DNA of 43,124 nt, taken from the IMG/VR virus record IMGVR_UViG_2531839664_000026, positions 1-43,124 of that record. One strand, given 5' to 3'. This document shows, one piece after another, positions 1 to 3,000 of this stretch. The number at the start of each line of letters is the position of its first letter. Within the stretch, counting starts at the first letter, position 1. Made by a program: the position numbers. The DNA comes from a virus (lineage: Duplodnaviria > Heunggongvirae > Uroviricota > Caudoviricetes).

Positions 1-3000
1 CAGAATCACCGACGCCAGAAACTGCGAGGTGGTCTTGCCGTTAATGGTGACATCATTTTCCGTCACCCAGTTACCGTTACGCTGCAACTGAATCAGCAGT
101 CGGACAGAAGAGGGATTACGGTCGCCCTTTGAGGTGGTCTCCAGCAGTGACTGCACCCCGAAGGTGACCCGCAGGCGGTCAATGTTCGCGGACGTAATGG
201 TGCGCGTCACCGGCTTTGCCTTCGTCACTTCCACGCCCAGTGCGGTTTCAGCTCCGGAAGACTCAAAGCCTTCAGGTGGTGTCTGCTCCTGCTCCCCGGC
301 GCGCCAGACCGCTGTCACACCATGTATCACAGGATTACCGTCCGTGTCCGTCAGCGGGGTTTTGTTCACCAGGATACTCTGCAACCCCTTCACCGGACCT
401 TCAATCGGCCCTTCACCAATGGCATCAATCACGCTCATCATCTGCGTGGACTTAAGATTGTCCTTTGCCTCAACCGGCGTGTGCGCCCTGCCGCCACCTT
501 TACCCATAATGTTCCTCTCAATTGGTATTATTAATCGCAGTGATAGGATATTGCACAGCTATTGCGCGATATCATCAGAACGCTGTTTGTTACCCTGTAA
601 CCAGCAAGCTCAGTCTGTTAACGGAATTAATGAGGGTTTTATGAAATGTAAAATCATTGCTGCCATTGCCATGCTGACAGCAGCATCATGCGGATACGCA
701 GCAGAACAGGAAGTCCCAATGAACCTTGTCAGTGCTGACGGAAAAGAAGTCAGCATTGGAAAAATAACCATTCAGGAGACCCCCTACGGTCTGCTGTTCA
801 CACCAGCCCTTCACTCTCTGTCTGAAGGCATTCATGGTTTTCATGTGCACGAAAAAGGAAATTGCGCCCCGGCACTGAAAGACGGAAAACCGGTCGCAGC
901 ATTATCGGCTGGCGGTCACTTTGACCCGAAAAACACCGGCAAACATCTTGGCCCCTGGTCTCCGGATGGACACCTGGGCGACCTCCCTGCGCTGTTCGTG
1001 ACGCATGACGGAAAAGCGAACTACCCGGTCCTGGCCCCGAGACTGAACTCATTAAAAGAGATTAAAGGGCGTTCTCTCATGCTTCATGCTGGCGGTGATA
1101 ACCATCATGACCATCCGGAGCCCCTGGGCGGTGGTGGTGCGAGAATGGCCTGCGGCATCATTCAATAATCAGTCAGGTAAGGGGCGGGCCCCTTACCTTT
1201 ATTCCTCAGGACGATAAATCCTTTCTCCCTGAAAAGAACGGCACATCCTCCCTCTCTGAGTTAATGTTTTTGTCGTGACATAAGAATAATTCCTTACACT
1301 CAATCTTCGTAACGCTCCCGCAGTTCCGCAACTCTGCGGGATTTTTTTATTCTTTTTACCTCTGCCGCCCGATAACCACGACCTTTCCGCCACCGCCTTC
1401 ATCACGGGTACTGATGTCCTGGGATATACGGCGGGAGCCAACCAGCATTTCCCCGTAAGGCACCGGCATCGGGTTCCCCTGGGCAATCATGTTATCCAGC
1501 GAGGAAAAGTACGTGTTCTGTCTGCCGTTATCCGTTGCGCGGTAATCCGGTGTTTTTGCCTTCGGGGCCAGCATCTGGGCCACACCGCCCAGAATCATGC
1601 TGGCTCCAAGTGAAAACAGCATCGTGGTGGCAGAAAAACCACCGGCTGCCAGGGCTGAACCCCATAACGCCATTGATGCCCCGGCAGTGAAGAAAGAGCC
1701 CACGATGGCTGCCGCCCCCAGCACAATCTGCAGTCCACCCTTTCCGGCCCCGGCCAGTCGCGGCACAATATGGATGACCACCCCCTCACCCAGCTGTTCG
1801 TGAAGACGGGCGTACACCGCCTCCGGTGCCGTGTCCTCACCGCGAATACGTATCTGGTACCAGCCTTCGTTCATCTGACGGCGGAATCCCGGCACCTGTA
1901 ACGACAGCGCCCGGATGGCTTCCGCTGCCGTGTTCACATACAGGCTGAGGCGGCGGCCAAATCGTTGTAAATCCCCGTGAAGGCAGATGCGTGCCAGCGG
2001 CGGTGACGCCAGACAGAATGCGTTCGTCGTTGCCATTTTTCGGAATACCTCTCCCGTTTACTCAGTTGTTCAGGCAGATGGTGAAGCAGCTCACCGTTGC
2101 CGCAGTATATGGCGGCATGATTGGTCACCGATGCGCCAAAGCAGCACAGCAGGATATCGCCAGGCTGTGCGGAAGGCAGGGAAATCCTGTAAAAACCAGT
2201 CGCCTCCATATTGTCCAGGTACAGGTTCTGACCGTTGCGCCACCAGTCATCCTCACGCTCAAAATCCGGCATATCAATTCCCGCCAGATGGTATGCATCC
2301 CGGAACAGGGTGTAACAGTCCGTCACCCCGTGCTCAAAGCGCCGTCCTGTCAGATGTGGCACACAGCGGAATTTATGAATGTCCCCCCGGCAGACCAGCC
2401 ACCAGGACAGTGCACTTTTTATCTGCAGCCGCCGGTCGGCCTCGCTCAGCCAGGGCAGACCACCGGGATGACTGTGGACCAGTGCCACAATCTCCCCCTG
2501 CATCTCTGCCCGCAGCCAGTCTTCCGGTGCAATACGAAAATACGCCTCCGGCTCTGCAGAGATATTCACACAAGGGATATACCTCTCCCCCTCCGGCGTT
2601 CTCACCACGAAGCCGCACGACTCCGCAGGCGCACACCGCCGGGCATGCGCCAGAATCGCTGATTCAGTCTGTGTCATAAACCGGGATTTACTGCGAAAGT
2701 TTATTAATGGAAAGGAAACCGCCAAAATTAGCCACCATGCCGCGCATCTCACACCCGCGCATGCACTTGCTGCATCTGTCCTTACGGATATCGGTGGTGG
2801 GTTTATCGAACTCATCCGCCACCGCAGGACCGTTATAACCGCATTCATCTCCCCGGTAATCCCACATACAGGTGTTCGCCAGCATGATGCGACCGGGAAA
2901 CAGCGCTCCGTCCGTCTCGGTCGGTGTGGCCAGCACAAACGAGGCTGTCATGGCCGTCAGCTCTGACATCTGCTCCACCACCCAGCGGTCTCTCAGCTCC

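Follow-up and report, generated by a model that had tools for sequence, protein, structure and literature searches.

A moron, in the sense in which Juhala et al. 2000 are said to have used the word, is an extra gene unit in a late operon. The closest described relative of the cargo gene considered here, SodC-F1 of Escherichia coli O157:H7, was characterised biochemically in 2008 (D'Orazio et al. 2008, PMC2569942). A signal peptide identical to the one found here was cleaved in part by signal peptidase I and in part by signal peptidase II, 299 bp 5′ of the sodC-F start drove lacZ independently of RpoS (the only fusion used in published work), and sodC-F mutants showed greater sensitivity to H2O2 (PMC2569942). 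The closest described non-coding genes are EcOnc22, EcOnc23 and EcOnc24 of EHEC Sakai, which give RNAs of ~85 nt that are destabilised in a Δhfq strain (Tree et al. 2014, PMC4104026), and PasB of EPEC E2348/69, an Hfq-dependent sRNA of 83 nt (Pearl Mizrahi et al. 2021, PMC8550237; Zhu, Shabalina and Storz 2026 preprint). The sRNA from sodC-less gaps between tail genes I and J is documented by two published Northern blots. The literature that we searched holds no statement that PasB and EcOnc22–24 form one family; the PasB note field of Table S6 is empty and "EcOnc" is absent from the main text of the preprint. For enzyme activity, for RpoS-independent expression, and for the existence and Hfq dependence of the sRNA in sodC-less gaps, we rely on these papers.

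Here we analyse the I–J gap of a 43,124-nucleotide viral sequence of the Caudoviricetes (IMG/VR record IMGVR_UViG_2531839664_000026; "the window" denotes this whole stretch), in which the identity of the genes, the ligand residues, the hairpins, the junctions and the homology to published sRNA loci were established directly. Taken as a whole, our explanation, in which we have considerable confidence, is that two plus-strand units, independent of each other and each antisense to the tail operon, make up the gap.

Results

Organisation and distribution of the I–J gap

J and I both lie on the minus strand, and the gap between them occupies exactly 508–1355, so that the 848 bp given in the initial annotation are exact; its companion statement, that in lambda J follows I directly, holds approximately, the lambda gap being 60 bp. 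On the plus strand the gap carries a Cu,Zn superoxide dismutase gene followed by two hairpin/U-run elements, T1 and T2 (Table 1). The ribosome-binding site of J, GAGAGGA at 513–519 on the minus strand, lies within cassette-specific DNA. RefSeq calls gene I shorter, at 1356–1937.

Table 1. Coordinates of the I–J gap features and of the flanking tail genes in the window
Feature	Position	Strand	Basis or content
Tail tip/host-specificity gene J, 5′ part	1..507	-	Start ATG 507-505; Pfam FNIII-A_GpJ 3.7e-24; gpJ in annotation of identical O121 DNA
sodC upstream region, cassette-specific	508..640	+	Sequence; contains SD 632-636
sodC (SodC-F1 type), Cu,Zn superoxide dismutase, 175 aa, periplasmic, partly lipid-anchored	641..1168	+	Pfam, PDB, ligand alignment
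T1, predicted intrinsic terminator of sodC	1175..1206	+	AGGTAAGGGG-CGGG-CCCCTTACCT then TTTATTCC; within cassette-specific DNA
Cassette-specific spacer, T1 to sRNA body	1207..1252	+	No sigma-70-like promoter by promoter scan and alignment
PasB/EcOnc22-family sRNA gene body without promoter (predicted)	1253..1348	+	Homology, position, orientation; equivalent of 83-nt PasB about 1270-1348
T2, terminator of PasB-family sRNA	1316..1348	+	UCCCGCAG, 10-nt loop, CUGCGGGA, then U7
Tail assembly gene I	1356..2036	-	Pfam Lambda_tail_I 5.6e-15; annotation

Between 400 and 1500 the window matches, at 100% identity, E. coli O121:H19 chromosomes in which sodC is annotated between a tail assembly gene and gpJ, an arrangement annotated also for Stx2a phages and Sakai Sp4 (ECs_1120). 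Over 1–20664 the window is 99.76% identical to the O121 RM8352 prophage, and annotation was carried over from RM8352 for that interval only; beyond ~24.9 kb the window has no match there. A full-length sodC cassette stands at the same position in 547 of 5426 complete E. coli genomes (~10%). Among the matches listed, the cassette (508–1327) shows at least 99.6% identity and the same junction, with TOE17, at 80.7%, as the sole exception.

Phages that have no sodC share 1–507 and 1253 onward with the window and carry ~131 bp in place of 508–1252, homology with them stopping exactly at 507. Their I–J gaps measure 240–342 bp and occur in Stx1a and Stx2c phages, in 1717, in BP-4795 and in Sakai Sp11, Sp14 and Sp15. 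The gene thus stands between conserved I and J and is missing from close relatives, as expected of a moron. In the rare TOE17 allele the order is sodC, T1, an intact PasB promoter, PasB and T2.

The sodC gene and its product

The protein matches Pfam Sod_Cu (PF00080) at an E-value of 3.9e-32, residues 40–174 spanning profile positions 3–133 of 133, and the solved bacterial SodC structures 1z9n, 2wwn and 1eqw at ~1e-62. In an alignment to human SOD1 (human counterparts in brackets), the Cu ligands H68, H70, H93 and H149 (H46, H48, H63, H120) and the Zn ligands H93 (bridging), H102, H111 and D114 (H63, H71, H80, D83) are complete, and the catalytic Arg is R168 (R143). Of the disulfide pair, C171 aligns to human C146 and C75 to the cysteine present in SodCI and SodCIII; a bacterial insertion shifts the human C57 column. 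In the export signal an AASC lipobox can be read alongside the signal peptidase I site GYA|A, and an SD, GAGGG, stands 4 nt 5′ of the ATG. The picture drawn in the initial annotation, of a self-contained antisense cargo gene with a signal peptide and an SD of its own, is therefore borne out. Two findings had been named there as grounds for giving it up: a protein without the metal ligands, which falls away because every Cu and Zn ligand is present, and a gene belonging to J, which does not apply to a separate ORF on the opposite strand.

Over 508–1327 the window differs from Sakai Sp4 by 1 nucleotide, which turns L112 into P112 and leaves the two proteins one residue apart; L112 is the F1 type, and this is the published difference that defines F1 versus F2. 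By its sequence the window protein is predicted to have superoxide dismutase activity, as published for SodC-F1 (PMC2569942). In Shiga-toxin-producing E. coli this cargo gene is already known as the prophage SOD that has been characterised; it is annotated in RefSeq and in hundreds of genomes, and is nothing new by itself. A donor search with one genome per species returned, among the matches listed, only relatives of at most 69% identity (Serratia, Pseudomonas, Leminorella, Pragia).

Upstream of sodC, a sigma-70 promoter scan found no site reaching 9/12 consensus positions and none that was convincing, the best candidate under relaxed settings being TTGGTA-16-TAGGAT at 522–549. Alignment of this region with TOE17 and Fels-1 brought out a conserved block at 562–593, retained in the 80%-identical TOE17 allele, and no clear hexamers.

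The two hairpins

T1 (hairpin 1175–1198) has a 10-bp stem of −17.9 kcal/mol (z −2.0) followed by UUUAUU, and T2 (hairpin 1316–1341) an 8-bp stem of −14.4 kcal/mol (z −3.5; none of 200 shuffles was as stable) and then U7 at 1342–1348, its end lying 8 nt from the stop codon of I. A terminator scan of 1–2200 returned 6 terminator-like sites against 1.8 ± 1.4 expected. The T1 helix is preserved in the divergent TOE17 allele, where the loop is altered and longer, and T1 is the predicted terminator of the sodC moron itself. T2 combines an invariant stem with a hypervariable loop across 8 alleles, and RNAalifold on these 8 sRNA alleles recovered only the invariant terminator stem, with no covariation, because the stem never varies. 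The T2 loop and 3′ flank of the window are of the Sp15/WGPS6 type and not of the Sp4 type, which indicates recombination within the T2 hairpin.

The late transcript in lambdoid phages is Q-antiterminated. The U-runs of both hairpins occur on the plus strand only, with none on the minus strand, and the terminators can therefore stop only rightward transcripts, from sodC or the sRNA, from entering I-K-L antisense.

An sRNA body between T1 and gene I

The segment 1253–1348 shows 97% identity to an Stx2c-phage allele that has the promoter, against 82% to EcOnc22 (Sakai Sp15) and 81% to PasB (E2348/69). It resembles the PasB/EcOnc22–24 genes in its position in the I–J gap, in its antisense orientation and in ending beside the I stop codon, and both the sRNA body and the CCCGCAG-loop-CUGCGGG-U7 terminator of the family are present. 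The EcOnc22, EcOnc23 and EcOnc24 loci are the I–J gaps of Sakai Sp15, Sp14 and Sp11, and PasB (NC_011601 1466343–1466261, minus strand) sits in that of E2348/69. The last 23 nt of the EcOnc probe target match the plus strand exactly, immediately 5′ of the hairpin, and the published PasB probe is complementary to the hairpin in three loci (L005, L006 and L015). The complement of CCTTACACTCAATCTTCGTAACGC would give an allele-specific probe for the window sRNA.

Neither for the window copy of this sRNA nor for eight sodC-less loci did Rfam 15 give a family at an E-value of 1 or below. The sole Rfam match overlapping the features of the gap, a weak one to STnc400 at 1132–1208, scored 23 bits where the gathering score is 80 (E 0.23) and was taken as chance. 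AgvB, suggested by CA-rich motifs, was rejected as an identity for the sRNA: the AgvB and AsxR sequences differ and are located at the pR′ moron site. Esr41 was likewise set aside, being encoded in SpLE1. AgvB itself is present elsewhere in the window, at 24116–24177.

The native promoter of the sRNA, TTCACA-16-TATAAT, is found in sodC-less alleles and in TOE17 and is missing from the window; with TATAAT or AATAAT as its second hexamer, it stands directly upstream of the sRNA in L002, L015 and L019. In the window its −35 is deleted, and 1238–1252 aligns with the native −10 region, TATAAT being replaced by TCCTCC, in an alignment that is short and uncertain. A sigma-70 scan between T1 and 1253 found no convincing site. 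By consensus scans and alignment, the window copy appears to have no promoter, and we infer that it yields no RNA except, at most, by read-through. It may instead have a non-canonical promoter or be processed out of a longer RNA.

Discussion

We suggest that 508–1252 represents a sodC-F moron, consisting of an upstream region, an SOD gene with export signal and T1, and that 1253–1348 represents the body and T2 of a resident Hfq-dependent sRNA gene of the EcOnc22/23/24 (EHEC) and PasB (EPEC) family. The cassette would have taken the place of the J-proximal half of an ancestral gap of ~240 bp, and in the common allele, that of the window, the sRNA promoter would have been lost as well, leaving the sRNA body 3′ of T1 without a recognisable promoter of its own. 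A lysogen would express sodC from the gene's own RpoS-independent promoter, as published (PMC2569942), and T1 would terminate the transcript, T2 catching only polymerase that reads through T1. The leftward late transcript would be affected by neither hairpin and would have to cross the entire gap for J to be expressed. SodC itself would clear superoxide in the periplasm and at the membrane, and so shield the bacterium from oxidative stress in the host.

The initial annotation read both hairpins as a tandem terminator pair of the sodC moron that insulates the cargo from the convergent late tail transcript. Its two plus-strand hairpin/T-run terminators exist, both lie 3′ of sodC, and T2 would in practice halt polymerase passing T1; the pairing itself is very improbable, however, since T2 lies within a segment shared with sodC-less phages, in which T2 and the preceding 64 bp occur as a published sRNA gene with its own promoter, and TOE17 has a promoter between T1 and T2. 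Insulation fails on strand logic: intrinsic terminators are strand-specific, neither hairpin has the minus-strand U-run that this role would call for, and the transcript in question must pass the gap if J is to be expressed. An objection of another kind, that sodC is an inactive remnant or pseudogene carried passively in a decaying prophage, can point to the closely related O121 prophage, whose RefSeq annotation has a pseudogene with a frameshift in place of the portal gene, and a partial HNH endonuclease gene. It is hardly credible for sodC, whose reading frame is intact and retains all catalytic and structural residues; only residue 112 separates its product from the characterised enzyme pair, the codon differences from the TOE17 allele are 57 synonymous versus 34 non-synonymous, and mutants described in the literature show raised sensitivity to H2O2 (PMC2569942). 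In the O121 prophage, frameshifts are also annotated in the Lom-like and tail fibre genes, which lie outside the window, past its start.

The sRNA body could, finally, still be used as the distal part of the sodC 3′ UTR, reached by read-through of T1 and released by processing, so that sRNA output would be coupled to sodC expression. The region equivalent to mature PasB is wholly intact, at 97% identity to the promoter-bearing allele, and the annotated 5′ end of PasB, 24 nt past the −10 hexamer and right after a U-run, fits a processed end. Some read-through is plausible because the U-tract of T1 is interrupted (UUUAUUCC), and the junction is fixed in the 547 genomes. Against this stand the stability of T1, a GC-rich hairpin of 10 bp that has 5 U among the first 6 positions and is probably efficient, and the near-clonality of the cassette (at least 99.6% identical among the matches listed), which makes retention of the sRNA body uninformative on selection. 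Sakai, too, has no listed Hfq peak at that place: Tree et al. give none downstream of sodC in Sp4, which is weak evidence either way because their filter left out sites near coding regions (PMC4104026). On balance we think such use unlikely.

The I–J gap of these phages is thus a two-tenant site, with a moron beside an sRNA gene, and what looks like a second terminator 3′ of a cargo gene can in fact mark where an adjoining non-coding gene ends. For work on PasB and EcOnc22, this means that a widespread promoterless allele lies 3′ of sodC, one that may not be independently expressed and that BLAST surveys would count as a copy of PasB. A bolder version, about which we are doubtful, is that the sodC cassette captured a resident Hfq-dependent sRNA gene, so that in ~10% of complete E. 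coli genomes the RNA has lost its own promoter and, if made at all, would be a read-through or processed product of the sodC 3′ UTR; were this capture true, an sRNA regulon would be tied to the expression of an oxidative-stress virulence gene.

Comparison with known systems places each unit among its relatives. SodCI of Gifsy-2 (STM1044, Salmonella), one of two comparisons proposed in the initial annotation, is a prophage Cu,Zn SOD virulence gene, antisense in the tail operon and 58.8% identical to the window SodC in product, but it is inserted at a site other than I–J, between L and a Lom-like gene 3′ of M. SodCIII of Salmonella Fels-1 (STM0924) is likewise a Cu,Zn SOD encoded antisense between I and J in a lambdoid phage; it keeps every ligand and has 60.5% amino-acid identity. 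There, the 53 bp from the sodCIII stop codon to I hold a single hairpin/T-run and no PasB-like element. PasB and EcOnc22/23/24 share with 1253–1348 the gap, the strand and the terminator a few nt from the I stop codon, and their sodC-less alleles have the promoter that the window copy has lost. The other proposed comparison, with EHEC sodC, leads to the same gene at the same site: in SodC-F1 and SodC-F2 of E. coli O157:H7 (EDL933 CP-933R/V; sodC_1 = ECs_1120 in Sakai Sp4) the gene, the I–J site, the antisense orientation and the AASC lipobox are all as in the window, which differs from them in nothing of substance apart from the type of its T2 loop and 3′ flank.

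Results

The sodC gene between I and J

All tail genes of this part of the window lie on the minus strand, with the tape-measure gene coming after L, and the start of J at 507 together with the end of I at 1356 bears out an I–J gap of exactly 848 bp (508–1355); the lambda gap measures 60 bp. The initial annotation had placed a sodC moron here, antisense to the tail genes. The moron is real, with an intact ORF and the same placement in O121 prophages and in Sakai Sp4. Its product matches Pfam Sod_Cu (3.9e-32) as well as some two dozen solved structures of bacterial SodC (1e-48 to 1e-63). 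Absent metal ligands would speak against the proposed Cu,Zn-superoxide dismutase, yet in an alignment with human SOD1, Gifsy-2 SodCI and Fels-1 SodCIII every ligand is present (Cu, H68, H70, H93 and H149; Zn, H93, H102, H111 and D114), as are the catalytic arginine R168 and the disulfide cysteines C75 and C171.

This cargo gene is already known. Window positions 400–1500 are 100% identical in eight E. coli chromosomes, mostly labelled O121 or O121:H19, where RefSeq annotates sodC between a 'tail assembly protein' and gpJ; two Stx2a-converting phages are annotated with the identical arrangement between tail genes, and in Sakai Sp4 the gene is sodC_1 (ECs_1120), flanked by ECs_1118 and ECs_1121. 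When the gap alone served as query, the full-length sequence was recovered from 547 of the 5426 complete E. coli genomes; among the matches listed, full-length copies always span 508 to 1327 and are at least 99.6% identical, E. coli TOE17 being the sole exception. D'Orazio et al. 2008 (PMC2569942) characterised sodC-F1 and sodC-F2, which differ by T or C at nucleotide 335, so that residue 112 is Leu or Pro. L112 is encoded in the window, and exactly one nucleotide distinguishes it from the Sp4 copy over 508–1327, giving P112 in Sp4, so that by sequence the window gene is sodC-F1. According to the same study, the SodC-F enzymes form dimers and exceed chromosomal SodC in stability, expression is RpoS-independent and occurs in log phase and anaerobically, an AASC lipobox is used in part so that a fraction of the enzyme is membrane-anchored, and deletion mutants show raised H2O2 sensitivity.

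Features of the window, with strand, supporting scores and predicted folding
Feature	Coordinates	Strand	Details
J	start 507 (ATG 507-505)	minus	Pfam FNIII-A_GpJ 3.7e-24
sodC ORF, 175 aa	641-1168	plus	GAGGG 4 nt 5' of ATG
T1, first hairpin/U-run element after sodC	1175-1198	plus	10-bp stem, -17.9 kcal/mol, z -2.0, tail UUUAUUCC
T2, second such element	1316-1341	plus	8-bp stem, -14.4 kcal/mol, z -3.5, tail U7
I	1356-2036	minus	Pfam Lambda_tail_I 5.6e-15
L	2688-3386	minus	Pfam Phage_tail_L 6.7e-91
AgvB (anti-GcvB)	24116-24177	plus	96.5 bits; gathering score 56
STnc100	24178-24367	minus	148 bits; gathering score 47
Prophage tRNA-Arg(tct)	25141-25217	minus	
Prophage tRNA, anticodon cat	25298-25373	minus	Sakai Sp4 homologue annotated ileZ, tRNA-Ile
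C4 antisense RNA	34771-34858	minus	82.8 bits; above Rfam gathering score
isrK	34883-34959	minus	56.6 bits; above Rfam gathering score

T2 as the predicted terminator of a small-RNA gene

The two hairpins that the initial annotation assigned to the moron as a tandem terminator pair both exist on the plus strand, a minus-strand U-run being absent at either, and the stability of T2 was equalled by 0 of 200 shuffles. Their pairing within the moron did not hold, however. Homology to sodC-less relatives breaks off precisely at 507, the J start codon, and restarts at 1253, so that T2 and the preceding 64 bp, shared with sodC-less phages, fall outside the sodC insert; in sodC-less Stx2c and Stx1a phages ~131 bp stands in for 508–1252.

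We compared the loci of Stx2_14744, PhiR12_4, PPompW, WGPS6, BP-4795, 1717 and Sakai Sp11, Sp14 and Sp15. In all these sodC-less EHEC/EPEC lambdoid phages the gap spans 240–342 bp (240–259 bp except in PPompW) and follows one plan on the strand opposite to the tail genes. A strong J-proximal hairpin comes first, then a sigma-70-like promoter (TTCACA-16-TATAAT or AATAAT) and ~60 nt of moderate conservation, and last a CCCGCAG-loop-CUGCGGG hairpin whose U-run stops a few nt from the I stop codon. Stx2a_1447 has the I-proximal part in common, with an IS66-family transposase gene annotated in place of J. On the tail-operon strand, a very stable hairpin lies just upstream of J in sodC-less gaps; in Sp15 (L011 2040-2064, minus; -27.5 kcal/mol, z -5.3, then UGUUUUCUGG) it resembles an intrinsic terminator placed ahead of J. 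The hairpin recurs in loci L002, L004, L005 and L007-L010, the J-proximal segment of L006 being different, and is absent from the window because it lies in the segment replaced by the sodC cassette.

These gaps coincide with published small RNAs. EcOnc22, EcOnc23 and EcOnc24, of Sp15, Sp14 and Sp11, respectively, were listed by Tree et al. 2014 (PMC4104026, Table S2) as plus-strand RNAs of the Sakai genome that migrate at ~85 nt in Northern analysis and lose stability when Hfq is missing; their coordinates fall exactly within the I–J gaps, and the last 23 nt of the Northern probe target are an exact antisense-strand match directly 5' of the hairpin. PasB of EPEC E2348/69 (83 nt, NC_011601 1466343-1466261, minus, prophage PP6) is strongly Hfq-dependent with 37 RIL-seq partners (Pearl Mizrahi et al. 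2021, PMC8550237, Table S6). Its interval lies in the I–J gap, 6 nt from the I stop codon, and its probe exactly complements the hairpin of L005, L006 and the E2348/69 locus (L015). Since position, strand, promoter layout and terminator are alike, EcOnc22/23/24 (L011 2132-2228, L012, L013) and PasB (L015 1462-1544) are, as judged from sequence, one sRNA family; no statement equating them was found in the literature searched, and Rfam 15 yielded no family for the element at an E-value of 1 or better. Identity of window 1253–1348 is 97% with the Stx2c-phage allele, which bears the promoter, 82% with EcOnc22 and 81% with PasB; T2 is thereby identified as the predicted terminator of a gene of this family.

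Across eight alleles the T2 stem is invariant, and for that reason offers no covariation support, while the loop varies from ~10 to 16 nt; a conserved stem with a free loop is a pattern typical of terminators. The window shares its loop type with Sp15 and WGPS6, and Sp4 with Stx2c, which points to recombination inside the hairpin. A weak STnc400 match over the sodC 3' end and T1 (1132-1208, plus; 23 bits, gathering score 80, E 0.23) is probably chance similarity.

Probable promoter loss and the TOE17 allele

Homology of the window to the sRNA gene starts at TCTCTG (1253), just downstream of the -10 position of other alleles, and scans of the stretch from T1 to 1253, relaxed thresholds included, revealed no sigma-70-like site; this copy thus appears to be without its own promoter. 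The anatomy of the gap is settled, at the level of sequence comparison, by the rare TOE17 allele (L019 1330-2098; 80.7% identical overall, its SodC carrying 34 amino-acid differences), which reads sodC, T1, intact TTCACA-16-TATAAT promoter, PasB, T2 and I. It keeps the T1 helix though the loop is altered and longer. Relative to TOE17, the window is missing ~45 nt that include the -35; tentatively, given the short alignment, its TCCTCC aligns to the TATAAT. The common promoterless arrangement may have the TOE17 allele as an intermediate or as a parallel form.

Other elements

AgvB abuts STnc100 in a convergent pair. Tree et al. 2014 (PMC4104026) reported similar sRNA pairs for the pR' moron site; the STnc100 family has been linked to PasD (2026 preprint). 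C4 and isrK are adjacent. C4 is a component of the P1/P7-type immunity region. Positions 20793-22057 (1265 bp), 99.9% identical to an RM8352 segment spanning an annotated IS3-like IS600-family transposase gene, constitute an insertion when compared with the O121 RM8352 prophage, which is otherwise 99.8% identical and has its join between a holin gene and a SASA-family esterase gene. The match to that prophage ceases beyond ~24.9 kb, so that the element is a mosaic.

Discussion

We propose that the lysogen transcribes sodC rightward from its own promoter, whose activity was established with a 299-bp upstream fragment driving lacZ (D'Orazio et al. 2008, PMC2569942), and that T1 would end this transcript, leaving T2 to act only on polymerases escaping T1. 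The exported, partly lipid-anchored SodC would remove superoxide outside the cytoplasm. The sRNA body of the window would then be a silent relic or, in an unlikely reading, the distal part of the sodC 3' UTR. Together, T1 and T2 would shield I-K-L from antisense transcription. The initial annotation had them insulate sodC from the late transcript, a role we reject: both are plus-strand terminators, whereas the late transcript runs leftward on the opposite strand and has to traverse the entire gap for J to be expressed. In lambdoid phages the late transcript is modified by Q and resists terminators.

What is new here is the composite anatomy: in ~10% of complete E. coli genomes sodC is followed by a fixed PasB-family body that is putatively promoterless, and the TOE17-type allele retains the PasB promoter. 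Among known sodC morons, Fels-1 sodCIII (60.5% identity) has both the I–J site and the antisense orientation in common with the window gene, whereas Gifsy-2 sodCI (58.8%) is inserted elsewhere, with a Lom-like gene and L as its neighbours.
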